A stretch of DNA of 24,000 nt. It comes from Balneola sp. Lineage in GTDB: Bacteria; Bacteroidota; Rhodothermia; Balneolales; Balneolaceae. The position numbers were made by a program, and so were the translations under genes. The notes below the pieces were generated by a model. That model ran no database searches and was not told where the DNA came from. It saw only the letters and a program-made list of their open reading frames with translations. Positions 12,484 to 24,000 of this stretch are shown here, in pieces (positions within the stretch are counted from its first letter, which is position 1; each line of letters opens with the position of its first letter). The stretch covers positions 132,263-156,262 of the forward strand of contig JBDVIC010000002.1 of the NCBI GenBank assembly GCA_039962805.1, given 5' to 3'.

Positions 12484-12511
12484 GCTAACTAGAAAAAATT
12501 ATTTAAGTAAA

Positions 12512-12543
12512 AGCTCTGATAAATCATCAGGGCTTTTTTTTTT
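12512..12543 (+). terminator. rho-independent terminator between the convergent pdh operon and the MotB-like gene
   Basis: Stem agctctgat / atcagggct (one G-T wobble), loop aaatc, then a run of 9-10 T. On the other strand only a short U-tract follows, so it mainly terminates the + strand operon. Confidence 0.65.
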
Positions 12544-12548
12544 GAGGC

Positions 12549-14258
12549 TTATTTAACTCGCTCGATAAGATAAATGATAGAGCTGAGGTCGGAGCTATCA
12601 CGGCTAAAAGTATTGTATAAGGATAGTATTTCTTCCCAATTAGAAAATGGTCGAGATACTAAATAATACCTGTTATTATCATATAATTTGATGCTACTCT
12701 CCAGACCCATTTCAGCTTTTATTCTTTGGGCGAGTATATCTGCATCGTTTCTATTTGAAAATGATGCTATTTGGAGTTGATATAAAAAAGTGTACTCAGA
12801 TACAGATTCAGGATCATACTTAATAAAAGCATTATTAAGCCCATCAAAACTCTTAATTTCTTGTAGTCTCTGTTCTATCCTCCTTCTACTAGAAATGGGC
12901 TTTGTAAGCACAGAATAAGCTTGGAGTGACATCTGGTTAATCTCAGCATCTATATCAAAATCAGTAGCTATCGTTTCTTTAAAATTAAGAGCATTTTGTT
13001 CATTTTGGAAAAAGCCCAACTGAATTTGATAAGTTATAGGTAAGGGACGTTTAGATGTATTTTCGTAGCATTGCTGAATTACCCCAGTAACTAAATCCTC
13101 ATCTACTTTGCTAATTATATCTTCCTGTATACTTAAAATGTCAGAAAAAGAGCCTTTGCTAGCCGTCCGAACGGAAAACAAACGATTATTATAGGTGATA
13201 TCAAAAGTGTAACCGGTTTGACGCTCAGCTTCATCTGCAGCATTTAGGCTTTGTATAAAAGATTCAAAGTTCCCCAACTGAACTGCATAGGAACATCCGG
13301 CTGCATCTGTATCAACTTTTCTAGGAGTAGTTGTTGATGTGTTCTCTGTATTTTGAGGTGTATTTACAGGTTGAGTTACAGAAGCGCTGGTATTCTCATC
13401 ATCTGAAAACTCAGGATCGGAATTGGTTGGTTCATTCTCAGTATCATTTTCATCAACTTCAGCGGCAATATTCTCAACTATGTTTTCAAGAATAGCAGAA
13501 CTATCAGTATTGATCTCTGATTCATTGGATAAAAGTACAGAATCTGCTCCTGCAACTGATTCCGGGTTGGAATAATATAAACGCAAGACTACGCGTCTAT
13601 TCTCATCCTTATTAGCCGGCATTGGATTTCCCTGATCATCGAAATTAACTAATGGACGTGAGTCAGCATAGCCAGAAGCTTTTAATCGTTTTTGAGGAAG
13701 CCCCATTTCGCTAAAATAACGAACAATATTAGAAGCTCTGGAAGTAGATAATTCCCAATTTGATGGAAATGAGGAGGAGGAAATAGGAACGTTGTCTGTA
13801 TGTCCTTCTACATCAATTTCGAAATCATTATATTCAATGAGTTGAAAAGCAGCCAATACCCGATTAAGTATTTGCGTTGCATCGTCCTGTAATTGAGCAC
13901 TTCCCGAATTGTAAAGATCATCACTTTTAAACCTTATTCTTACATCGTTAAGCTCTCTAAATATCTCCAATTGCCCCGCATCAATTTCCGGTTTTAATAG
14001 AATTTCGAGTTCTTCTTTTATTTTTTCTATAGGGGTAGTGATAAACTCTGATTGGTCATCAGATGATTTGAATAAATCCGAAACAGAGAATGATTCTCCA
14101 TTATTCAATTCTGAAAATGAAAGTAAAATCACAAGAAAACCAAGAAGTATAGTAATTATATCAAGATAACTAACCTGCCAACTGTCATCATCTTCCGGTT
14201 CCATTTCCTGTTTAGGAAATAGTGAGTTCTTTTTGCTATTTACGTGATCTGAATCCAA
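12549..14258 (-). CDS. MotB-like stator protein: TM with conserved Asp, OmpA-type peptidoglycan-binding domain, three C-terminal SPOR-like repeats
   Basis: 569 aa, TTG start 13 nt after the MotA-like stop. SWQVSYLDIITILLGFLVILLSF matches the MotB pattern W-x-[VT]-[ST]-Y-x-D-h-h-T-h-L at the cytoplasmic end of the TM (Asp33, codon 14160-14162). The OmpA-like core is EGHTDNVPI...SNWELSTSRASNIVRYF...ASGYADSRPL...NRRVVL. An acidic low-complexity linker follows. Then come three repeats with the SPOR pattern Y-x-[VIL]-Q-[LI]-[GA]-x-F...A, e.g. YQLQIASFSNRNDADILAQRIK...YYLVSRPFSNWEE. Confidence 0.85.
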   Translation of the reverse strand: MDSDHVNSKKNSLFPKQEMEPEDDDSWQVSYLDIITILLGFLVILLSFSELNNGESFSVSDLFKSSDDQSEFITTPIEKIKEELEILLKPEIDAGQLEIFRELNDVRIRFKSDDLYNSGSAQLQDDATQILNRVLAAFQLIEYNDFEIDVEGHTDNVPISSSSFPSNWELSTSRASNIVRYFSEMGLPQKRLKASGYADSRPLVNFDDQGNPMPANKDENRRVVLRLYYSNPESVAGADSVLLSNESEINTDSSAILENIVENIAAEVDENDTENEPTNSDPEFSDDENTSASVTQPVNTPQNTENTSTTTPRKVDTDAAGCSYAVQLGNFESFIQSLNAADEAERQTGYTFDITYNNRLFSVRTASKGSFSDILSIQEDIISKVDEDLVTGVIQQCYENTSKRPLPITYQIQLGFFQNEQNALNFKETIATDFDIDAEINQMSLQAYSVLTKPISSRRRIEQRLQEIKSFDGLNNAFIKYDPESVSEYTFLYQLQIASFSNRNDADILAQRIKAEMGLESSIKLYDNNRYYLVSRPFSNWEEILSLYNTFSRDSSDLSSIIYLIERVK

Positions 14259-14271
14259 CTATACTATCTGC

Positions 14272-15069
14272 CTAAAACTGTTGACTTGTTCGGTGCATAT
14301 GTGCTTTTAGCTTGTCATATATCTGTAGGGAAGACTTTTGTTGTTGAATCAGAAGTATACCCTCTAGAATTAATTTCTCTCTGAAGAACTGAAGAGAGGC
14401 AATGTTATTCATTTTCTTTGCCATAGGTACGAAAATGAAATTCCCAATAAGAATTCCATAAAGGGTGGTCATTAATGCCGCAGCTAACCCAGTTAATAAA
14501 GAATCCATTTCGTTAAATCCTGAAAGAAGAACAATAAGCCCAAACAAAGTCCCCAACATGCCAAATACAGGAGCTGTTTTTCCCATACTTGCTATAATTT
14601 GGTTGATCTGTTGTTGCCTAGTATAAGTTTCCTGGATGTTTATTTCGGCAAGTTCACGAAGCTCTTCTGTAGAATAATTTGTATCCAAAATTGAGAACAA
14701 ATACCCTTCAAAACGGTTGCTATATTCTTCACTTAGTTCTGAAACTGCTTTTATTTTATCAGCTCGTATTCTTTTTTGCCATTCAAGAATCTTTTCAATG
14801 TCTTGCTCTAATAAGCTATCATCAATATTGCTATGAGAAAAGAGGCGAGTGCTTTCTCCAAGAGCTTTAATTACTTTTTTGAATGGGAAACTTATAAATA
14901 CACTAGCTGAAATTCCGCCAAATACAATAGCGAGACTTGGTAAATTCAAGAACTCATATTTAGACGGTACTATATTATATTGAGCGAAGCCTGTCACTAA
15001 TAATGCCCCCCACACTAAGATGATTAAGGAGAGTAAGAAACTAAGTATATTTAAAAATGAAGTACGCAT
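14272..15069 (-). CDS. MotA/PomA-like proton-channel stator protein (MotA_ExbB family, 4 TM)
   Basis: 265 aa. Two N-terminal TMs, a ~100-aa charged cytoplasmic loop, then TAPVFGMLGTLFGLIVLL and LAAALMTTLYGILIGNFIFVPMAKKM, which match the MotA/ExbB channel core including both conserved Pro positions. The 4-TM topology fits MotA rather than 3-TM ExbB/TolQ. Confidence 0.85.
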   Translation of the reverse strand: MRTSFLNILSFLLSLIILVWGALLVTGFAQYNIVPSKYEFLNLPSLAIVFGGISASVFISFPFKKVIKALGESTRLFSHSNIDDSLLEQDIEKILEWQKRIRADKIKAVSELSEEYSNRFEGYLFSILDTNYSTEELRELAEINIQETYTRQQQINQIIASMGKTAPVFGMLGTLFGLIVLLSGFNEMDSLLTGLAAALMTTLYGILIGNFIFVPMAKKMNNIASLQFFREKLILEGILLIQQQKSSLQIYDKLKAHMHRTSQQF

Positions 15070-15078
15070 ATATTAGTT

Positions 15079-15588
15079 TTAATTAGGTTTTCTGTCTGGG
15101 AATTCATCAATCAGGCCTTGTCTTTTTAATTCTTCAACAATTAAGGGGGAAGGAGGAATGGGTAAATCTTTATCTAGATCGAGGGCTTGTCTCCAATATG
15201 TAACAAAATTTTCTATTGAACCTAATCCTAAATAAATACTGCCTTTCAACGCTAAGATATCTGCCGTTTGTTTAATGCTTGCAGCTACATTTATTAAGGC
15301 AAGGGCTTCTTGAAATTCATTGTTATAGAATTTTTGTTGAGCAGAGATGTAAAGTGAAGTTATTCTATTAGCTTGTATTTGATGGGTTTTATAGAGCTCA
15401 TCTTTATACAACTGCTCTAATGAGTCTCTACGGGCTTCTTCTTTTAGAACCAAAGGATCTACCGTACTTGTATCTGCCTGGATGGTATCACTGGTTTCCG
15501 GTGAGGCAGGAAGTGAATTATCCATAGCTTCTTTAGAACTTCCACAACCTGTTACAAATGTAAGAGAAAGCCCAAAAAGCATTATCAA
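15079..15588 (-). CDS. TPR-like lipoprotein
   Basis: 169 aa. Short signal sequence ending in lipobox FVTG|C. The start is TTG 15588 or ATG 15582. The C-terminal half is helical-repeat/TPR-like (FYNNEFQEALALINVAASI...ALKGSIYLGLGSIENFVTYWRQALDLD) and paralogous to the C-terminus of the 997-aa OM protein. Confidence 0.6.
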   Translation of the reverse strand: MIMLFGLSLTFVTGCGSSKEAMDNSLPASPETSDTIQADTSTVDPLVLKEEARRDSLEQLYKDELYKTHQIQANRITSLYISAQQKFYNNEFQEALALINVAASIKQTADILALKGSIYLGLGSIENFVTYWRQALDLDKDLPIPPSPLIVEELKRQGLIDEFPDRKPN

Positions 15589-15610
15589 AGCTTTATTCGA
15601 TATGTAGAAA

Positions 15611-17443
15611 TTAGTCTTGATCTTGCTTACTCAATTTTAAGGATTCTCTTAGTGAACTCACTAAAATCATTTTTGCTTTTCCTGTGTTTTCCTGCTCGCC
15701 ATCCAATTCCTCTAGTTCTAAGCGGATAAGTTGTTGCTCTCGCTTTGGTCTACCTGTTAATATTTTTTCTTTGGATATGTTATCAAGTCCCACTAAAGCT
15801 TCTAACAATGTAGATGTATCGATAGATTCGATTCCATTTTTTATTACTTCTTCATCAAGCTCAGGAATCTGGTCAATAGTAAAGAATTCTCTTTCAAGAA
15901 TATCACCAATAGGAGAACCGGTAGACTTTAACTGTTCTATATATTGCTTTTGTTCATCAACTGGTAAGTTTTCAAGAATTGGAAGGATATTTTCAACTCC
16001 ATAATCCTGTTGCTGTACATTATCTCTTACTTTAACCGCTTTCTCAAACAGGTTACCAGAAATAAGGCTTTGCTCCTTGTATGAAACGGTATGAAGAGTA
16101 GACATTTTGAGCATTATTTCTGCAGCTCTGGAGCGTTCAAAAGAGTTTAGAATAGAAGCTCCTTTTTCTTGTGGTAAATAGTCAAGGATTAAAGCTGCAC
16201 TTACATTATTCTCAGTTTTAATAAGCTCAGAAATCAAATTATCCGGTAAGTGAGTTAAGAACTTAAACAAACCAAGCTTAGCATGTTTCTTGGTAGACTT
16301 AGCATCCGTTTCTTCATCTTCTATGATTGAATTAAAATATTTAGCTGCTCTATATTTTTCATCAATCGACATTGCCTCTAAGTTAGTAATAGCATTAGCT
16401 ATTATGGCATATTTTTCTTCATCAAGATGATTATGAATCAGTTTAAGTGAGCTTTGATCAATAGCAGAAATGACTTCAGCAACATTCTTAGGACCATTTT
16501 TAGGATCGCTTTCAATCCAAAATTCAAATACCAGTGCTACTTCTTGTGGGTATTTGAAGAAGTTCTCAGAAACTAATTCAAATTCTGTTGCAATATCACG
16601 AGACTTCTCTTTACTGCTTCCATGAAAAGACATATTGCTGTCAGGGTTTAGGCTCCCTTCAACAGTTATATCACTTTTAATATTATCTCTTTGCGACTTT
16701 ACACTGGCTTGTTCTTTTGGTTTTCTGAAATAGCCCACGACAAGCAAGCCAACTAAAAAGACTCCCATAAGAATTATTTCTACGGTATAGTCTTTAAAAG
16801 AGGAAAGAAGGCTTTTAGGCTCGGGGTCTTCTAAAGTAATTACGGATGTAGGCTTGAAACTAGGATCAGGAATGGCAAGCTGAGTAATGTTTATCACATC
16901 TCCCCGAGCTAAATCAACTTTAGCTGCAAAACCGGTTACACGTCGCATAAAATCTAAATCGGTATCAGAAAGAGATGTATCGGCATAAACATTAACTGCC
17001 AAACTATTAAGTTTCAAACTTTTTACGGTGTTCCTGCTCAACACTGCTTCCGGTGATTGAGAAGCAGGTTGATTATTTTGAAGGTTTTCCTCAGGAAGGA
17101 AGGGTAGACCCGGCATAAACGTGTTTTGAGGTCTTCTGTTTACTACTTGATTATCAGTGCTTTGAAAAGTTTCTTCAACGAATTCTGCATCAATGTTCAC
17201 ATCAACAAAAAACTTTTTCCTATCAAAGTGATTGGATAATATTTGAATGATTTGAGAATCGTAGGCTTGTTCTAGAGATGCAATTTGAAGATCACCAGAT
17301 TGAGTTGAAGCATTTGACTGGGCAAAAGTATCACTAGGTATTACACAGAGTAATAACAGAGCTACTAGTAGATTTCTTAATGAAGAATAATTTCTCACGA
17401 CTTGTTTAATCAACATAAATATTTCGGACAACCTAAAAATCAT
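15611..17443 (-). CDS. membrane-anchored FliG-like rotor protein with a periplasmic FliF/YscJ-like (ring-building-motif-like) domain
   Basis: 610 aa. Signal peptide/TM1 (LLVALLLLCVIPSDTFA|Q), ~175-aa periplasmic part, TM at aa 219-238 followed by basic RKPKEQ (cytoplasmic side). aa ~295-605 resemble the FliG N/M/C armadillo domains. ENNVSAALILDYLPQEKGASILNSFERSRAAEIMLKMSTLHTVS compares with the FliG middle EHPQtiAliLsyL-p-qAa-vL--lp-e-q-ev--Ria-m--vs. FFTIDQIPELDEEVIKNGIESIDTSTLLEALVGLDNISKEKILTGRPKREQQLIRLELEEL compares with FliG_C F-F-dl--ld-r-iq-ll-evd---L--ALkga-----ekf--nmS-Ra---l--dl. Alternative start ATG at 17416. Confidence 0.72.
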   Translation of the reverse strand: MIFRLSEIFMLIKQVVRNYSSLRNLLVALLLLCVIPSDTFAQSNASTQSGDLQIASLEQAYDSQIIQILSNHFDRKKFFVDVNIDAEFVEETFQSTDNQVVNRRPQNTFMPGLPFLPEENLQNNQPASQSPEAVLSRNTVKSLKLNSLAVNVYADTSLSDTDLDFMRRVTGFAAKVDLARGDVINITQLAIPDPSFKPTSVITLEDPEPKSLLSSFKDYTVEIILMGVFLVGLLVVGYFRKPKEQASVKSQRDNIKSDITVEGSLNPDSNMSFHGSSKEKSRDIATEFELVSENFFKYPQEVALVFEFWIESDPKNGPKNVAEVISAIDQSSLKLIHNHLDEEKYAIIANAITNLEAMSIDEKYRAAKYFNSIIEDEETDAKSTKKHAKLGLFKFLTHLPDNLISELIKTENNVSAALILDYLPQEKGASILNSFERSRAAEIMLKMSTLHTVSYKEQSLISGNLFEKAVKVRDNVQQQDYGVENILPILENLPVDEQKQYIEQLKSTGSPIGDILEREFFTIDQIPELDEEVIKNGIESIDTSTLLEALVGLDNISKEKILTGRPKREQQLIRLELEELDGEQENTGKAKMILVSSLRESLKLSKQDQD

Positions 17444-17451
17444 TGATTCTC

Positions 17452-20445
17452 TTAATCCTCTGGTTGAGTTTTAATTATTTGATCCAATACTTCTATCTCA
17501 GGAATAACGATTTCAGGATTAAATTCGGCAGCCAAATCCCAATTCTTTTGTGCTTCAGCTTTATTACCATTTAAATAATTCAGACTTCCTTTTAAGGCAT
17601 ACCCTTGAGCGGTTTCAAACAACGCCAACGATTCGTTAACAAAAGTTAAAGCTCTATCAATATTTCTATTGTAAAAAGCCGTTTGTGCTTGAATAATTAA
17701 ACGTAGGGCATTATCTACATCCTTATCTAGCTTTTCTTCAAGTTCAATTATTTCTGCACTTTCTTTTACGCTAGCTATTATAGATTCAGTTGAAATAGTA
17801 TTTACTTGTTCTGGTTCAAAATCTTCTGGTACGATCATGAATTCTAAGCCTTCAACAAAATCACCATCCGCTAAAGCTTTGATATCAAAACTAACTTTAC
17901 TCGGTAAAGATTTTGAGTTTAATATGTTCAGTTGGGAAGGGTCAATGGATAGTTCATAATTTCCGGGGGGAATTTCATAAGCATAAAAGCTACCGTCTGA
18001 GAAGGTCCGTAATTCCTGAACAGTATTTTGATCTATATTATTTAGAAATAATCTGATCCCTCCAATACCATCTTCTGTTTCTGCGTCAAAACGACGATTT
18101 ACAACACCTTCAATTATACCAGTGGAATAAAACGGTACATCAATTGGTTTAAAATAATTTGGATCAGAGATCACCCCAAATTTTTCTTGTTTAGGTACAA
18201 GCAGGGGATTCTGAATGGCACCTTTATTGATCTCCATATTATATTTGAAATAAGGCTGCATTTGCGTGATATAGGTAATGCCATTTTTCGAGGTTGTAGA
18301 CCCCGTTCTATCTAAACGTATAGCATTATTTTTGATCAATTCGTCGCCCTCTGAGAATTTCTCATCTCCATCATAATCCACGAATAATCTAACAGCCGCT
18401 GCAGAACGACCAACTTGATTCCGGCTAGTTAGGAAAAGATTATTGTTATTGGCATCGTAACCTATAGATCCACGAACGGTATTTGTAACTGAACTAGAGC
18501 TTCTGATATTTCTATAACGAGAATTGACTCTGGTTTTATTAAAGTCGATTACAATGCTGGCTGAAATGGAGTTATAATTAAATCTAAAATTTCTTGCTAC
18601 GTTAAGTTGAATATTTCCCTTTTTGAAGACTTTTCGAGAAAGAAAAAACTGAATGTCATCCAGCTCACTAGAAGTTGGTAGAAAAGAGATCTCTCCACGT
18701 GCAAACATTCCATGAAAGACCTTAGGAGTGGTATTGGTTCTTGGGAAATTGTATGTAAGTGAAAAATTAGCGGAAGCATTTTCACTCAGCTCAAAAAAAT
18801 CATTTGTCGTATTCGAGTTGCTAAAGCCAGTTCTAACATTAAATCGCCCTAGCCTGGTACTTAGATCTACTCTATATCTTGAAATAGGACGAGGTTCACG
18901 TTCAATTCGAGAACCAAATAACCGAATGTTTAGAGGGATATTACCAATCAAAAAAGGATAGAATACACTTCCCTGTAATTCTTGATCATAATTTCCTGAG
19001 TTATAAATTCTATTTTGTGCAAAGTAATTAGTATACGCTAAACTAATACTGGCAGCATTTGCTAAGATTGTACTACCACGAGTTCGAACAAAAGCATCAT
19101 TAGCAATTTCTGTACTAAATAAATACCTATTAAATAAACGAGCTGAAAGACCGCCTGTAAAAGTAGGTAAGGAGGTATTTAAAGACTCAAAATATTCAGC
19201 TCCGGCCCTTGCAGTGAGCCAATTTGATATACCAATTACAGTATTGGCCTGGGCTGTTAATCCACGCTCCTGAGTGCCTATAAGTGGGTTTTCGAGTTCG
19301 CCAAGATCTATATTGTAGTTGATTTCACCTGGAGGAAGAAAAGAAAAAGGAACCTGTATTCTCTTGGAACGTTCTACAACTTGACCTGTAGGACCAAATA
19401 TTTTTATATCGTATGCTGAAGTACCGTAAGTAAGGGGGGTGATAAAACGGTAATTGCCTGTTTCATCAGTTTCTTGAAAATCAGCTAGCGTATTATTGAT
19501 GTAAAGCTCAACTTCTGAGCGAGAAAATGTATTTCCTTGGATCACAAATTCATCGTATAGTCTTCTTGGCTCAAGAGGCTGGTTGGTAATTTTTATACCT
19601 CGATAAGGATTGTTTAATATACCGGATGAGCTTGTTTGTCCTGCGGTAACACTACTAATAACAGGACTATCTGTAATTGCATACCTCCAACGTAAATTAC
19701 TTGTAGTAACGTTCGAAGCATCAGCTGAATATGCGCCATTTATAGCTCCCTGAACATCTCCACCGAGAGCTTCTGCTCCAATAGCTGTATTAAATAGAAA
19801 GATACTAGATTCATCACTGGTGATAGCAGATAAGTTATAATCTAAAAATCCTAAACCAAGAATTTTGCGATCTCTACCGTACTCGACCGGGTAATTTAAA
19901 TTAAGCGTTCGGTCATTGCGTTGGATTTGCTGGCGTCTATTTTGACGAATAAGCTTTTGAACTACCGGGATGTTTTTATCAGTTTCAAGAAGAAGTGCTA
20001 GATTGTTGAAATCGACATCAAAATCTAAACCAAATAACTCATTAAAAATGGAAATTTCTAGGTAATAGTCTAAATCTTTGATCAGAAAATCATCGCTGGT
20101 TAACGAGAGGTTTTTGTTACCGGATGAAGCTTGAAAAGTACTTAAATTTATTTGATAAGGTGTTTCCTCTTCTAAGAAATTACCATATAGAACCACACCT
20201 GCATTAAGCCTTGTGTTATGATCTATTTCAAGCAGTTGAAATACTTCTTTGTAAGGAATGTAGAATGTATCATTTTTATAATATGCTATTACCACAGAAT
20301 TAATGGCACTTCTATATGAAAATGAAAGATACACTTCTATTTCATCGTCGCTTGTAGATTGAGCCTTTAGAGAACTAAAAGCCCCATAACACACAAGCAA
20401 ACAAAGAAAGTTGATAGAAATATATTTCCATTTTCTTGAGGTCAC
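17452..20445 (-). CDS. large outer-membrane beta-barrel protein in the usher position (usher-like assembly pore candidate) with CarboxypepD_reg-like domains and a C-terminal TPR-like module
   Basis: 997 aa. GTG start overlaps the upstream stop (GTGA at 20442-20445). Signal peptide ...SSLKA|Q. The long central region has alternating beta-strand patterns rich in Y/F/N/R/G. There are two carboxypeptidase-regulatory-like beta-sandwich signatures (TDETGNYRFITPLTYGTSAYDIKIF; RTFSDGSFYAYEIPPGNYELSI). A TPR-like tail occupies aa ~914-985. Homology to PapC/FimD ushers is NOT established by eye. Confidence 0.5.
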   Translation of the reverse strand: MTSRKWKYISINFLCLLVCYGAFSSLKAQSTSDDEIEVYLSFSYRSAINSVVIAYYKNDTFYIPYKEVFQLLEIDHNTRLNAGVVLYGNFLEEETPYQINLSTFQASSGNKNLSLTSDDFLIKDLDYYLEISIFNELFGLDFDVDFNNLALLLETDKNIPVVQKLIRQNRRQQIQRNDRTLNLNYPVEYGRDRKILGLGFLDYNLSAITSDESSIFLFNTAIGAEALGGDVQGAINGAYSADASNVTTSNLRWRYAITDSPVISSVTAGQTSSSGILNNPYRGIKITNQPLEPRRLYDEFVIQGNTFSRSEVELYINNTLADFQETDETGNYRFITPLTYGTSAYDIKIFGPTGQVVERSKRIQVPFSFLPPGEINYNIDLGELENPLIGTQERGLTAQANTVIGISNWLTARAGAEYFESLNTSLPTFTGGLSARLFNRYLFSTEIANDAFVRTRGSTILANAASISLAYTNYFAQNRIYNSGNYDQELQGSVFYPFLIGNIPLNIRLFGSRIEREPRPISRYRVDLSTRLGRFNVRTGFSNSNTTNDFFELSENASANFSLTYNFPRTNTTPKVFHGMFARGEISFLPTSSELDDIQFFLSRKVFKKGNIQLNVARNFRFNYNSISASIVIDFNKTRVNSRYRNIRSSSSVTNTVRGSIGYDANNNNLFLTSRNQVGRSAAAVRLFVDYDGDEKFSEGDELIKNNAIRLDRTGSTTSKNGITYITQMQPYFKYNMEINKGAIQNPLLVPKQEKFGVISDPNYFKPIDVPFYSTGIIEGVVNRRFDAETEDGIGGIRLFLNNIDQNTVQELRTFSDGSFYAYEIPPGNYELSIDPSQLNILNSKSLPSKVSFDIKALADGDFVEGLEFMIVPEDFEPEQVNTISTESIIASVKESAEIIELEEKLDKDVDNALRLIIQAQTAFYNRNIDRALTFVNESLALFETAQGYALKGSLNYLNGNKAEAQKNWDLAAEFNPEIVIPEIEVLDQIIKTQPED

Positions 20446-21272
20446 CGTATAGTGAATTGGGTTGAGGTTGATACGGGCTCCATTTTAACAATATTTTCGC
20501 TAGAAACGTCGCTACGTTGTGTTTCAAAAATAACTTCAGCAGTATAAGTGCCTGCCGATAATCCTTGAATATCGACTTCTTGACTATGTGTACCATCAAA
20601 ATATATGGTAGTAGAACGGAAAGAGGATTTAACTACATTATTGTTAGCATCTTTCACATTAACAGTAATAGATCCAAGAAAAGGGGAGTTACCGCCTCGT
20701 TCTAGTTTGGTTCTTACTTCTACAAAACCATCATCAGTAAGCAGAGCCTCTGTTCCGAGTACATTAATATCAGTGGTTACAGTACCTTTTTTATAGTAAA
20801 GTCCAGTTATTTGCTCAATGGTTATGCCCACTCTTGCAGATACAGAATTGTCATTCTGTAATTCTACCGGCGGAGTTTGAGCAGTAGATCTGGTTTTAAT
20901 TCTTGCCCAGTAGGTACCATCATTTAGATTATTGGGAGGAGCAACGCGCAAACGTACTACTTGTCGTTGACCGGGAGTGAGAGTAAAGTTCCTTGGAAAA
21001 GACTGGACCCAAGTATGAGCAGAATGTTCCTCTTGTTGTTCCATGTCGTCATACACAATACTCCTACTTCCTTCCTCATCAGTTGCTGTGTATGCAAATA
21101 TAAACTCGATAGACACTTCCTGTGGTTCGTTTGACCCATTTAAAACCAAGTAGGTTCCAAAGCGAGTATTTTCTTCTATAAAGATGTTTGTTGGAGAGAT
21201 GGTGATTTGCCCTAATATGTTGGTAGAGCATAACATAAACACCCAAATGACAAGCGATAATGATTTTTTCAT
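20442..21272 (-). CDS. periplasmic PapD-like fimbrial chaperone candidate
   Basis: 276 aa, signal peptide ...NILG|Q. Beta-rich, two-domain size. ITISPTNIFIEENTRFGTYLVLNGSNEPQEV and SFPRNFTLTPGQRQVVRLRV resemble the PapD_N patterns (-P--f-l-pg--q-vRl-). It sits between the subunit genes and the usher-position gene. Confidence 0.6.
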   Translation of the reverse strand: MKKSLSLVIWVFMLCSTNILGQITISPTNIFIEENTRFGTYLVLNGSNEPQEVSIEFIFAYTATDEEGSRSIVYDDMEQQEEHSAHTWVQSFPRNFTLTPGQRQVVRLRVAPPNNLNDGTYWARIKTRSTAQTPPVELQNDNSVSARVGITIEQITGLYYKKGTVTTDINVLGTEALLTDDGFVEVRTKLERGGNSPFLGSITVNVKDANNNVVKSSFRSTTIYFDGTHSQEVDIQGLSAGTYTAEVIFETQRSDVSSENIVKMEPVSTSTQFTIR

Positions 21273-21357
21273 TTTCTGTAGATTAATTATATGAACGCTT
21301 TAAATTAACAAATTCGGGTGCAAATTATAATTGAATTAATGAGGGTACTTTTTACAT

Positions 21358-21390
21358 AAAAAAAAAGTCTCATTATTGAATAATGAGACT
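21358..21390 (-). terminator. rho-independent terminator/attenuator immediately after the 4th (putative major) subunit gene
   Basis: On the minus strand, stem agtctcatta / taatgagact (21366-21375 and 21381-21390), 5-nt loop, followed by 8 U (A-run at 21358-21365 on the + strand). It lies 19 nt after the stop at 21409. Confidence 0.6.
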
Positions 21391-21408
21391 TTTGTAAGAA
21401 ACTTAATC

Positions 21409-21921
21409 CTAGTCGTAAGTGATAGTAAAAGTCATTACGTTAGATGTTCCAAGAGAAGTACTGTACGCACCAGTTTGTGAAGGAGCAGCTAATTCACCTC
21501 CAACATCCAAAGTAATATCACCACCAGTAAGAGTTACAGTACCACCATCAGTTACTTCTGAGCCACCTAACCAAACAGAAGGAGTAAAAACGATAGGATC
21601 ATCATCTTCAGTTCTATTAAGAGTAGCGGTAGTCCAGTCAACAACAACGTCAACACCAGAAGTACCAACGATCTGTAAAGCACCAGCAGTTGCTCCATCA
21701 CCTAAGTTTGCTTCTGTCGCATCATCATTAGAATTAGCATCAATAATTGAGTTAGCGCCAGTTTGGATAGTTCCTAGAGCAACATCAGTAGGTGTTAATA
21801 CAAGTGCGGCTTCAACCTGAGCTGTTACAGCAACGTTAGCTGTTTCCTGAGCAAGAATGTTAGCAGAACCAACAAGGATCATCAAAGCGAAAGCAGTAAA
21901 TAATTTGTTTAAATTTTTCAT
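21409..21921 (-). CDS. secreted DUF4402/spore-coat-U-like fibre subunit, putative major subunit
   Basis: The ORF track starts at TTG 21960. ATG 21921 gives a canonical signal peptide, MKNLNKLFTAFALMILVGSANILA|Q. The mature protein is rich in T/G/A/V/D. It ends ...GGELAAPSQTGAYSTSLGTSNVMTFTITYD, matching the family C-terminal pattern G-x-Y...h-x-h-x-h-x-Y-[DE] at the very C-terminus. It has its own upstream intergenic gap and a downstream terminator. Confidence 0.65.
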   Translation of the reverse strand: MKNLNKLFTAFALMILVGSANILAQETANVAVTAQVEAALVLTPTDVALGTIQTGANSIIDANSNDDATEANLGDGATAGALQIVGTSGVDVVVDWTTATLNRTEDDDPIVFTPSVWLGGSEVTDGGTVTLTGGDITLDVGGELAAPSQTGAYSTSLGTSNVMTFTITYD

Positions 21922-22010
21922 GAGAGTAAATTTTGTTTTTTTGAGTTGTACAAATTTCAAACTTTCTCTGAGATATCACAAGTTAGAGTTTATTAATGAA
22001 GCGGAGTAGC

Positions 22011-22544
22011 TCACTCATAGTCAATAACAAGGCTTAGTTCTCCTTCATAAATACCGTTCGGTACATTCCCTACATCAATGAATCCATATATATAAATAAA
22101 CACCGTTTGCCACTCAAAACGGTCTTTTTGGGCGTTTTCGTTTACTTGGAGGTACATGTTATCACCACCAAAAGGGGTGGCTACATCAGGATTATTAGTG
22201 CCGGAATTGTTGTAAGCGGCCTGAAGATCTATGGGGATAGTTGCTTTTACTGCAGGATTAAGATGTTTTAATATATTTGTTGATTGCAATTCCATGCGAA
22301 GAATCTGGGAATTGATGGCAGTAACCGAAAATATACCCATACTAGGATCACCTAGATTGATATTTTTTGTACCTGAGTTTACAATGATATCACCGAAATT
22401 CAACTCAGATAGCACAGTGGCCTCGAGTTCAGGTTCTAACTCTATTTGTATGTTTATATACTGAGCAGTAGATGAAGTGCATAATAATAGGGAGAAGCAA
22501 AAAGCATAGAGGTAAAAGAGATATGAACAATGCTTCTTAATCAT
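22011..22544 (-). CDS. secreted DUF4402/spore-coat-U-like fibre subunit paralog
   Basis: 177 aa. ATG start overlaps the upstream gene by 8 nt. Signal peptide ...SSTA|Q. LNFGDIIVNSGTKNINL motif. C-terminus YIYGFIDVGNVPNGIYEGELSLVIDYE. Confidence 0.6.
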   Translation of the reverse strand: MIKKHCSYLFYLYAFCFSLLLCTSSTAQYINIQIELEPELEATVLSELNFGDIIVNSGTKNINLGDPSMGIFSVTAINSQILRMELQSTNILKHLNPAVKATIPIDLQAAYNNSGTNNPDVATPFGGDNMYLQVNENAQKDRFEWQTVFIYIYGFIDVGNVPNGIYEGELSLVIDYE

Positions 22545-23133
22545 AAATAATAGTAATGTCTATTTCAGCAGAGTAACTACCAGCATCAACGGTTCCAACA
22601 TTTAAAGATCCATACAAGTATAAGTAAGCAGTCTCATTATAAATTGAGGGATCATATCCATCATAAACCGGGGTAGGAGGTGGAGCGGGCGGCTCACTTG
22701 TTCTATAACGTATAGGGAATTGAGCAGTACCTGAATTAGCTACAACATTGACGATACGTGCTTGAGCTATATTATCACTCCCTCTATTAGCGTAAGCAGC
22801 TTCCAGAGTATAAGGGATACTGCAACTGGGGTCGCTGGTACAAGCAGGGTTTCCATTGAGCAAAAGTTTGCTATCCGCAGTGATAGTTAAAAAAACGTCT
22901 AAATATTTTACCCCGGTAATAGTGATCACTTTTGAGTTTGAGATACCAATATTGTTAGTACCACTACCGGAGATGATGGCGCCAAATTCAAAATCCGCTC
23001 CGGGATTTTGTTCAGCAACAGAAAGCGAATAGTTATAATAATCGCCAAAATCTATTTCTTGGCTGTGTACCGGTCTAATGCTTAATAAAAAGAGAAGGAT
23101 AAAGAGGGAATATGTTAAAGCTGATTTTATCAC
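22537..23133 (-). CDS. secreted DUF4402/spore-coat-U-like fibre subunit paralog with Cys pair and Pro-rich insert
   Basis: 198 aa. GTG start after a 3-nt gap (23134-23136) following the upstream stop. Signal peptide ...PVHS|Q. FEFGAIISGSGTNNIGI motif, CTSDPSC Cys pair, EPPAPPPTPVYDGYDP insert. C-terminus LYLYGSLNVGTVDAGSYSAEIDITIIYD. Confidence 0.6.
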   Translation of the reverse strand: MIKSALTYSLFILLFLLSIRPVHSQEIDFGDYYNYSLSVAEQNPGADFEFGAIISGSGTNNIGISNSKVITITGVKYLDVFLTITADSKLLLNGNPACTSDPSCSIPYTLEAAYANRGSDNIAQARIVNVVANSGTAQFPIRYRTSEPPAPPPTPVYDGYDPSIYNETAYLYLYGSLNVGTVDAGSYSAEIDITIIYD

Positions 23134-23136
23134 TAG

Positions 23137-23640
23137 TTAGATATAATCTATTTCGATTGTAAATTCACCTTCGTAGCTACCAGGCTTAGCTTGTTCCACA
23201 AAAACACGACCACCAACCCATATATAAAAATCTCCATCTGCATTAAAACTGAAACTCCTATTCTCAGCTCCAAGAACCTCAGAAGTCAACTGTTCGTCAA
23301 TATCATTTCCGGTTAGCTGATAAATAACACGAATTAAACCATCACCATTTATTTGGTTTAAGATCTGGTTAGGTTGAAAAGTGATACGAATCTCAGCATT
23401 TGGATTACCTGATGCGATCATATGTCCTGCGTTACCACTAGTAGCAGGAGGGATGAAAATTTCGTTATTAACAGGTTCTAAATTTGCTAACTGAATATTT
23501 TGCACAGTAACCATCTCAATAGCCTGTATAACTGTTGCTTCAATATTGATTTCAGCATTTACAGACCTTGAATTTGTTTGGGCTGTACTATTGATTGAAA
23601 ACACTAAAAATAATGCTGTAAACGAGATTAAGTATTTCAT
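23137..23640 (-). CDS. secreted DUF4402/spore-coat-U-like fibre subunit paralog (first gene of cluster)
   Basis: The ORF track starts at TTG 23673. ATG 23640 gives the signal peptide MKYLISFTALFLVFSINSTA|Q. C-terminus FYIWVGGRVFVEQAKPGSYEGEFTIEIDYI. Confidence 0.6.
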   Translation of the reverse strand: MKYLISFTALFLVFSINSTAQTNSRSVNAEINIEATVIQAIEMVTVQNIQLANLEPVNNEIFIPPATSGNAGHMIASGNPNAEIRITFQPNQILNQINGDGLIRVIYQLTGNDIDEQLTSEVLGAENRSFSFNADGDFYIWVGGRVFVEQAKPGSYEGEFTIEIDYI

Positions 23641-23762
23641 TCGTTGAGCTAATTTTTTCTTTAAATATTGCAATCTAATTGCTTATTAGCCAGTTAGTAT
23701 TTTTTAATAACAACGGATTAGAGCAAGAGTAAATTTCAAATAATAGTTTTAAACTACACTAC

Positions 23763-24000
23763 TTACTTAATTAGTGTAAACTTCTGGGTATAAACGCTAG
23801 AACCTGTAGTAAGTCGATAGAAATAAACCCCACTTGCAAGATTTTGGGCTTCAAAATTTATGTTATACTTCCCAGCAGAGAGGTTTTCATTAATAAGAGT
23901 ACTTACTTTTCTACCTAAGATGTCATAAATAATTAGGCTCACTTTAGATTCTACGTCTAATCCAAATGGAATTGTGGTAGATGGATTAAACGGGTTAGGG
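23763..24000 (-). CDS. 3' end of a gene for a T9SS-secreted protein (Por-secretion C-terminal sorting domain); 5' part lies outside the window
   Basis: My own translation of the minus strand (not in the ORF track because no start is in the window): PNPFNPSTTIPFGLDVESKVSLIIYDILGRKVSTLINENLSAGKYNINFEAQNLASGVYFYRLTTGSSVYTQKFTLIK*. It matches the T9SS CTD pattern NPFNP-T-I-F-L-----v-l-iyDilGr-V--l-------G-------------sGvYfyrl---------K--l-K. Stop codon at 23763-23765. Confidence 0.8.
   Translation of the reverse strand, partial: PNPFNPSTTIPFGLDVESKVSLIIYDILGRKVSTLINENLSAGKYNINFEAQNLASGVYFYRLTTGSSVYTQKFTLIK

Follow-up and report, generated by a model that had tools for sequence, protein, structure and literature searches.

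A Balneola gene cluster joins chaperone-usher pilus genes to a flagellar-type rotor and stator module and may encode a powered envelope machine

A 24,000-nucleotide stretch of the metagenome-assembled genome of a marine Balneola sp. (assembly GCA_039962805.1, contig JBDVIC010000002.1, positions 132,263 to 156,262; here called the window) carries ten co-directional open reading frames (ORFs) on its minus strand, running from position 23640 down to 12549. Genes for a chaperone-usher (CU) type of fibre, comprising four small secreted subunits, a periplasmic protein at the chaperone position and an outer-membrane (OM) usher, are followed by genes for a FliF-FliG fusion (FliFG), a TPR lipoprotein, and MotA- and MotB-type stator subunits. 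The reading favoured here, to which we give somewhat better than even chances, is that the ten genes encode one envelope-spanning machine in which ion-motive force does mechanical work on an usher-bound pilus. If true, this would be a powered machine of the cell surface of a kind not described before. The original prediction, made from the window alone, knew of no described system that encodes both parts, and a search of the full-text literature likewise found no description of it.

The ten ORFs and their junctions, both overlaps included, lie where the original prediction had placed them. The genes of subunits 1 and 2 are separated by 3 nt, those of subunits 2 and 3 overlap by 8 nt (22537-22544), and the gene of the 276-aa periplasmic protein overlaps that of the usher in a GTGA (20442-20445). 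From the usher through FliFG, the TPR lipoprotein and MotA to MotB, the successive gaps are 8, 22, 9 and 13 nt. Larger gaps are found only around the subunit 4 gene, with 136 nt after it and 89 nt before it if the ATG at 21921 is its start. For subunit 1, the ATG at 23640 yields a better signal peptide than the TTG at 23673 that opens the mechanically called ORF. The features of the cluster are collected in Table 1.

The identity of the 997-aa OM protein is confirmed by its modelled structure and its orthologues. An AlphaFold2 model built from 54 homologues (pLDDT 81.5) shows an N-terminal domain, a large barrel with an inserted β-sandwich plug, two C-terminal β-sandwiches and an extra helical TPR domain (residues ~886-990). 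A Foldseek comparison of this model with the PDB returned FimD or PapC for all of the top 18 matches, with E values from 1e-28 to 6e-9 (ranks 1-17 at or below 1e-14) and up to 916 aligned columns for the best match. The window's protein itself has no Pfam Usher match, and a PDB profile search with the family found designed TPRs only. Two orthologues, P0359 (33.7 bits) and the usher of locus L099 (29.5 bits), exceed the Pfam Usher gathering score of 27.1 through the plug region. Because the model matches FimD/PapC structures and orthologues pass the Pfam threshold, the protein is confirmed, on its modelled fold, as a genuine usher, which had been proposed from its position.

The C-terminal TPR domain of this usher connects it to the motor genes. 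With the TPR lipoprotein of L062, a motor locus that stands alone, it shares 40% identity (E 2e-19), and with the lipoprotein encoded in the window 30% (E 1e-8); the domain is kept in the distant ushers of loci L044, L045 and L099. Classical ushers, in contrast, have no C-terminal TPR domain. The homology between a domain of the usher and a lipoprotein of the motor is a domain-fusion link, which argues for physical coupling of the two.

The putative rotor protein, 99% identical to JXR20_00805, is a natural fusion of a truncated FliF to FliG. Pfam and NCBIfam place FliG_M, FliG_C and FliG_N within residues 395-581 (TIGR00207, 5e-15), and the family profile aligns with E. coli FliG (hhalign probability 90.8%). 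A profile of distant family members aligns with a genuine FliF that a profile search had recovered and that has the Pfam domains YscJ_FliF and YscJ_FliF_C (hhalign probability 96.4%). The alignment spans the last periplasmic element, the second transmembrane (TM) helix and the C-terminal peptide by which FliF binds FliG; with E. coli FliF, the family profile did not align. An AlphaFold2 model from 84 sequences (pLDDT 82.8) predicts a periplasmic α-β-β-α-β domain with a long hairpin, one TM helix and an all-helical cytoplasmic part. The Foldseek matches of this model are full-length FliG structures over about 320 columns (E 8e-8 to 1e-5) and the FliF S-ring, RBM3 and β-collar (E 4e-5 to 1e-3, target-normalised TM-score about 0.5). 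As modelled, the chain consists of FliF RBM3/β-collar, TM helix, FliF C-terminal peptide and FliG. The predicted FliF/FliG-like membrane protein was therefore literally right.

What is missing from this fusion is RBM1/RBM2, the part of FliF that houses the export gate. Since its FliF part lacks these domains and is fused to FliG, the protein could not house an export gate. Two of its sites are strongly conserved. The tip loop of the periplasmic hairpin is disordered in the model and carries a PGLPFLP motif (residues 111-117), of which PGLP is at least 98% conserved among 86 family members. In the torque-helix equivalent, R568 corresponds to R281 of E. coli FliG and is 100% conserved in the same 86 sequences, which, together with 72 MotA and 68 MotB sequences, come from all fetched loci and form the basis of the residue conservation given here. 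E576 corresponds to D289 of E. coli FliG and is invariant only within Balneolaceae.

By their sequences, MotA and MotB score as flagellar stators rather than as Tol or Exb proteins. MotA matches the NCBIfam models of MotP, MotA and PomA at 1e-35 to 1e-30 (MotP 9e-35), compared with 2e-3 for TolQ and 0.03-0.04 for ExbB. Its P167 and P215 correspond to P173 and P222 of E. coli MotA, each at least 99% conserved, and D90, E147 and R151 of the cytoplasmic loop are conserved. The best NCBIfam match of MotB is MotD (3e-44), and its proton-binding D33, which corresponds to E. coli D32, is 100% conserved. These matches, with the domains listed in Table 1, bear out the MotA-like protein and the MotB-like protein with a TM aspartate and an OmpA-type anchor that had been read from the window; together with the FliG matches, they support both the rotor and the stator assignments by hidden Markov model. 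The SPOR domains shift between partners: they lie on MotB in Balneola (two copies, 12549-13300) and on the usher in Gracilimonas, Fodinibius and Rhodohalobacter. This placement suggests that both partners target the same, perhaps denuded or septal, peptidoglycan.

An orthologue of the TPR lipoprotein follows FliFG, directly or behind a further protein described below, in most loci with readable downstream DNA. At two distant loci (L044:5751-8264 and L045:9872-12262), FliFG and the TPR lipoprotein share one frame with no stop between them, and the signal peptide and lipobox are kept. Either the two are truly fused, with a second TM segment in the chain, or the lipoprotein is translated from an internal start.

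The cluster is conserved well beyond this genome. A genome scan using one genome per species found 41 loci, all in Balneolaceae or closely related metagenome-assembled genomes (MAGs), and among the carriers are the isolates Gracilimonas tropica DSM 19535 (L038) and Balneola sp. EhC07. The ten-gene order is identical at every Balneolaceae locus with enough flank. The cluster is also kept at three loci (L026, L038 and L039) whose neighbouring DNA showed no homologue of the housekeeping flank. The order usher-FliFG-TPR(-MotA-MotB) also occurs in the distant metagenomic lineages L044, L045 and L099, whose ushers are 33-43% identical to that of the window. The synteny of the pilus and motor genes accordingly extends to non-motile G. 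tropica and to all three distant lineages, and the association of these genes is far beyond chance.

The motor genes also occur without the pilus genes. An exhaustive profile search recovered 141 cluster representatives at E<1e-30, with about 35 subfamilies of full-length relatives, and two architectures are seen. The usher type (Balneolaceae, L044, L045 and L099) comprises subunits, chaperone, usher with TPR domain, FliFG, TPR lipoprotein, MotA and MotB. The core type comprises FliFG, a protein designated X, TPR lipoprotein, MotA and a short MotB, with unrelated surrounding genes and no pilus genes; it is widespread in metagenomes (L042, L043, L049-L096 and L100; e.g. L062:9947-14962), and one member is labelled an Elusimicrobiota MAG. 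Protein X is about 360 aa long, with a signal peptide, a periplasmic domain and a β-barrel-like C-terminus ending in Phe. It has no Pfam match, and a PDB profile search gave noise only. When protein X was compared with the usher as a possible relative, hhalign gave 1%, and the two are unrelated.

Protein X is always present in core modules and is absent from usher-type loci, as if it had been replaced by the usher. The motor module is older and autonomous, serving another OM β-barrel in other lineages, and the stand-alone five-gene module itself appears to be undescribed. The joint system of the original prediction holds as a pairing of modules in usher-type lineages, while the motor module is not specific to CU systems: it is widespread and elsewhere paired with another OM β-barrel. 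Because the usher carries the motor's adaptor domain, because its adjacency to FliFG is kept, and because X is absent from usher-type loci, the usher is taken to be a physical partner of the motor.

These components suggest a mechanism. In the inner membrane, the fusion protein would oligomerise into a ring resembling the MS-ring, beneath which the FliG parts would form a ring of their own. Anchored to peptidoglycan, MotA and MotB would draw on ion-motive force and push against the conserved torque helix of FliG. The TPR domains would tie the periplasmic face of the ring to the usher, and a plausible ligand for them is the invariant PGLPFLP motif at the tip of the collar. Ion-motive force would in this way be converted into mechanical work on the usher-bound pilus or its base. 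CU pili are the textbook case of energy-independent assembly; since such systems need no energy for subunit export, the preferred output is that the fibre or its base would be turned or pulled, giving movement or dynamics of the appendage, rather than that export would be energised. In line with ring formation by a single chain, engineered FliF-FliG fusions assemble rings (PMC6079021), a point counted in favour of the coupled machine. The coupled trans-envelope machine that had been predicted thus gains independent support from the TPR domain common to usher and motor lipoprotein; its output, for which rotation, extension or retraction, and energised export had been offered, is not established.

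Table 1. Features of the cluster and its termini (positions in the window).
Feature	Position	Strand	Basis or remark
Subunit 1, secreted DUF4402-like pilin paralogue	23137..23640	-	Pfam DUF4402 E 3e-5, 25.1 bits vs cut-off 25.2; signal peptide ending AQ
Subunit 2, DUF4402-like paralogue with proline-rich insertion PPAPPPTPVYDGY	22537..23133	-	Pfam DUF4402 E 0.03; insertion kept in orthologues
Subunit 3, DUF4402-like paralogue	22011..22544	-	Pfam DUF4402 E 0.1; alignable with other subunits
Subunit 4, probable major subunit, likely ATG 21921	21409..21960	-	No DUF4402 match; C-terminal TFTITYD; gaps on both sides
Intrinsic-terminator-like hairpin and T-run	21363..21393	-	14-bp stem, directly after subunit 4
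276-aa periplasmic protein at chaperone position, putative pilus chaperone	20442..21272	-	Signal peptide; immediately upstream of usher
997-aa outer-membrane usher	17452..20445	-	AlphaFold2 model; Foldseek; Pfam Usher in orthologues
C-terminal TPR adaptor domain of usher, residues ~879-997	17455..17811	-	Homology to motor TPR lipoprotein
610-aa FliF-FliG fusion, putative rotor ring protein	15611..17443	-	AlphaFold2 pLDDT 82.8; Foldseek; hhalign
Periplasmic ring-building domain, residues ~45-190	16874..17311	-	Model secondary structure; FliF RBM3/β-collar matches
FliG torque-helix equivalent, residues 565-580, RPKREQQLIRLELEEL	15704..15751	-	Alignment to E. coli FliG
TPR lipoprotein, motor-module adaptor	15079..15588	-	Lipobox VTGC; weak Pfam TPR
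MotA-type stator subunit	14272..15069	-	Pfam MotA_ExbB 1e-18
MotB-type stator subunit: plug, OmpA-like peptidoglycan-binding domain, two C-terminal SPOR domains	12549..14258	-	Pfam MotB_plug, OmpA, SPOR
Hairpin with A-run and T-run, bidirectional terminator-like	12509..12537	.	12-bp stem; between convergent motB and pyruvate dehydrogenase E2 gene

Several observations weigh against a single coupled machine. Ring formation, rotation and the TPR contacts are steps that we infer; the acidic pair of the torque helix is only partly kept, the equivalent of D288 being L575; and the 276-aa protein is a putative pilus chaperone whose fold is unconfirmed. FliFG variants in several lineages (P0165, P0120 and P0122; L044:5844-8267) carry an N-terminal LysM on the periplasmic side, and many ushers (Gracilimonas, Fodinibius and Rhodohalobacter; P0258-P0372) are 1170-1550 aa long and end in SPOR domains. 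If peptidoglycan-binding, these domains would hinder rotation of the ring or the usher. Since such tethering would oppose free rotation, a non-rotary, Ton-like variant is kept as the main rival, although we consider it rather unlikely. Here the FliFG ring would be a static, peptidoglycan-tethered scaffold, and MotA and MotB would act in the manner of Ton or Tol by gating the usher plug or by driving or terminating secretion of the fibre. The SPOR domains on MotB are also consistent with this variant, as are the plug domain in the usher and the pairing of core modules with a plain OM β-barrel that has a periplasmic domain, which recalls TonB-dependent logic. Its driven element, however, would be a FliG with an invariant torque-helix arginine on an MS-ring-type collar, an architecture known only from a rotor. 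Furthermore, a Pfam/NCBIfam scan found no TolA/TonB-like shaft gene in the cluster, the stator proteins score as flagellar, and CU export needs no membrane energy.

The other points against coupling concern the link between the modules, and they favour two independent systems side by side, namely an ordinary archaic CU pilus operon and an autonomous FliFG-TPR-MotAB module with an unrelated envelope function. Most family members are of the core type and have no CU genes; because this type is autonomous, the function of the motor is not intrinsically about pili. In addition, a conserved terminator parts the subunit genes from the rest of the cluster. The housekeeping flank (pyruvate dehydrogenase genes and alaS) is equally syntenic within Balneolaceae, so synteny inside this family is weak evidence when taken alone. 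Independence would nevertheless leave a motor-specific TPR domain on the usher in every usher-type lineage, an usher and FliFG that are 8 nt apart here and remain adjacent at 33% usher identity, the absence from usher-type loci of an OM protein that is constant in core modules, and the persistence of the cluster where the flank differs. On these grounds, independent adjacency is much less likely than a coupled machine and is best viewed as improbable.

Far lower is the probability that the motor genes are decaying remnants of an ancestral flagellar regulon, a reading suggested for Balneolaceae (PMC9909488), or displaced copies that serve a flagellum encoded elsewhere. KEGG-style annotation does label them fliG, motA and motB, some Aliifodinibius genomes have partial flagellar gene sets, and Balneola vulgaris has been described as flagellated (PMC5167729). 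The ORFs, however, are intact and strongly conserved in 41 species, with MotA the most conserved gene of the cluster (67-92% identity), and their catalytic residues are invariant. The fusion could not accommodate an export gate, its family is also found with the same partners outside Balneolaceae, and the cluster is present in G. tropica, which is non-motile (PMC4642740) and was reported to have no flagellar assembly pathway. In agreement with the original prediction that no other flagellar genes are present, flagellin, hook, rod, export-gate and FliM/FliN genes were not found among the ORFs of the window, and Pfam searches of the flanks of a few loci revealed no type III export, rod, hook, filament or FliM/FliN genes; this negative covers the window and those flanks, whole genomes were not scanned, and at the 41 genome loci the flanks were searched for homologues of window proteins alone, a limit that also counts against the coupled machine.

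A Zorya-like anti-phage defence system based on MotAB is likewise much less likely, and its probability is close to nil. PADLOC reports weak ZorB matches of MotB (E 4e-17), whereas the match of MotB to flagellar MotD is far stronger. MotA has no ZorA match, ZorC/D-like genes are absent, and the cluster has a fixed, housekeeping-like chromosomal position rather than lying in a defence island.

A bolder form of the coupled machine is that it represents a second kind of rotating appendage, assembled independently of the first, in which a CU fibre passes through the usher as through a bushing and is spun by an MS-ring/FliG rotor and MotAB, a "flagellum" that has no type III secretion, rod, hook or flagellin. 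FliF-FliG, MotAB and the TPR proteins would then be a general rotary engine for OM proteins of non-flagellated bacteria. This form is speculative, and we rate it as doubtful, a little below independent adjacency. It could relate to the motility and "flagella" reported for B. vulgaris, a species that is not among the carriers found.

A comparison of the cluster with known systems shows where its likenesses end. It resembles the flagellar motor core in the RBM3/β-collar fold, the FliF-like C-terminal peptide, the FliG N/M/C fold with an invariant R281 equivalent, the kept P173 and P222 of MotA, and the D32, plug and OmpA-like anchor of MotB, and its stator proteins are classified by NCBIfam as MotP, PomA and MotD. 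In contrast to that core, FliF and FliG form one polypeptide without RBM1/RBM2, and genes for an export gate, ATPase, rod, hook, filament, P/L rings or FliM/FliN are absent from the cluster and its flanks. The motor is instead partnered by a TPR lipoprotein and by an OM β-barrel or usher, and MotB has SPOR domains. In place of a complete, separate FliF with RBM1, RBM2 and RBM3, the fusion has just the RBM3/collar-like part, TM2 and the C-terminal peptide. Lacking an export apparatus, axial parts, FliM/FliN and a full FliF, the system is not a flagellum. Engineered Salmonella fusions of full-length FliF to FliG are also one chain and assemble rings in expression hosts (PMC6079021); these, however, are laboratory constructs with a complete FliF within a flagellum, whereas the fusion described here is natural, truncated and in a non-flagellar context.

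The pilus half is most like archaic (σ-type, Csu-like) CU pili with SCPU/DUF4402 subunits. Both have small secreted paralogues with a G.Y......Y C-terminus followed by the chaperone position and the usher, an usher with an N-terminal domain, a barrel with plug and two C-terminal domains, and a terminator after the presumed major subunit. The usher described here differs in its extra C-terminal TPR domain and, in some genera, SPOR domains; furthermore, there is no detectable PapD signature and no tip-adhesin gene after the usher, and an inner-membrane motor gene lies 8 nt downstream. CU assembly elsewhere requires no membrane energy. The motor adaptor domain of the usher and its link to an inner-membrane motor set this system apart from conventional CU systems.

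The type IX secretion system (T9SS) and its gliding motor, GldLM-GldKN, are alike in principle, in that an ion-driven inner-membrane motor would pass work across the periplasm to an OM complex and a surface adhesin or fibre. Both systems are found in the FCB superphylum, and several of the loci have T9SS cargo genes as neighbours. There is no sequence relation, however, and what would be driven here is a FliF/FliG ring, not the GldM shaft, by a peptidoglycan-anchored stator of the MotAB type. Tol-Pal and Ton (ExbBD-TonB) systems are set apart by the MotA scores given above, by the MotB-type partner and by the absence of a TolA/TonB-like gene. The Zorya systems (ZorA and ZorB with ZorC/D or ZorE) are set apart by the absence of ZorA and of accessory genes in PADLOC, which returned weak ZorB matches only.

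Existing annotation has treated such genes differently. In a KEGG survey that covered 16 type strains of Balneolaceae, flagellar assembly genes were reported to be absent from B. vulgaris, G. tropica, Fodinibius and Rhodohalobacter, and partial flagellar gene sets in the family were read as a decaying pathway (PMC9909488). This "incomplete flagellar pathway" probably includes the fliG-, motA- and motB-like genes of the cluster. B. vulgaris is described as motile with flagella (PMC5167729), yet its flagellar assembly genes were reported as lacking in the KEGG survey (PMC9909488). As this species is absent from the 41 loci, no conclusion is drawn from its reported flagella. According to a tree-wide survey, 11% of non-motile species have rotor proteins but no filament genes, which led its authors to ask whether these proteins serve another function (PMC12199754).

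The coupled machine, if true, would give a concrete role to the rotor proteins that about 11% of non-motile species possess although they have no filament. To our knowledge, FliF/FliG rotors are known only from flagella. If the reading is right, the flagellar torque generator would be a reusable module, which bears on the evolution of the flagellum, and abundant marine and hypersaline bacteria would possess a powered class of pili or OM devices. The finding also corrects genome annotations in which these genes figure as parts of a decaying flagellar pathway.

The subunits and the chaperone-position protein are less readily classified than the motor. DUF4402 is the sole Pfam family that the subunits match, and the matches are weak: 14 of 37 homologues match at E up to 0.01. 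Among the ORFs of the window, only the small secreted subunits match it, and a PDB profile search with the subunits gave noise only. Iterative searching with jackhmmer, in contrast, merges the four subunit groups into one family, and the C-terminal motif G.Y.G....I.I.Y is common to all four. The four secreted paralogues that had been predicted share this motif and are DUF4402-like, with weak Pfam support for three and none for the fourth. Subunit 4, whose gene is present at all loci, shows an alternating hydrophobic N-terminal strand behind the signal peptide in the alignment. In the cluster's proteins, the predicted signal peptides end just before a Gln (..AQ|), a residue conserved almost throughout the aligned subunits (e.g. 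23578-23640). A Gln at position +1 after cleavage is typical of Bacteroidota-like signal peptidase I substrates.

Wherever enough flank is available in Balneolaceae, and also in L044 and L045, the gene of the 276-aa protein lies immediately upstream of that of the usher. In L099 (338-7991), the chaperone gene and the usher are parted by three osmolyte-transport genes on the opposite strand (OpuAC, BCCT), and the usher-FliFG-TPR order is intact. The C-terminal half of the protein has weak Ig-like Pfam matches. By hhalign, the protein aligns weakly with FimC/YadV (probability 19.5%, E 1.2e-3), in register over 141 columns that span the whole N-domain. It has no Pfam PapD match, and the chaperone family has no PDB profile match at E up to 10. 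From the predicted PapD-like periplasmic protein, the signal peptide and the chaperone position therefore stand, and a PapD-like fold is not established.

The gap between subunit 4 and the chaperone gene contains a conserved element. In 36 of the 41 related loci, a hairpin of at most -8 kcal/mol precedes a T-run (T8-9) in this gap; the stem sequences differ between loci and the pairing is kept. The hairpin is probably an attenuator that sets a high ratio of major subunit to machinery, and a conserved terminator at this point fits a highly expressed major subunit. At the other end, the hairpin after motB marks the end of the cluster. A scan for σ70 promoters found no more sites than in shuffled sequences.

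The rest of the window contains alaS, the pyruvate dehydrogenase E1/E2 genes, and merC-like, response regulator, OM protein and similar genes. Directly upstream of subunit 1, a minus-strand gene that runs off the window (23765-24000) has a type IX secretion C-terminal sorting domain at its end. In 20 related loci, the gene at this position encodes a protein of more than 1200 aa with Invasin_D3 and Por_Secre_tail (e.g. L006:1-3666), and the distant loci L043 and L045 are also flanked by T9SS cargo genes. These neighbours may link the motor to surface adhesins delivered by the T9SS, or they may be a coincidence. In 24 loci (e.g. L015:605-3465 and L038:468-3318), the T9SS cargo gene upstream of subunit 1 is replaced by four conserved small or medium ORFs of 139, 196, about 460 (with DUF4900) and about 128 aa.

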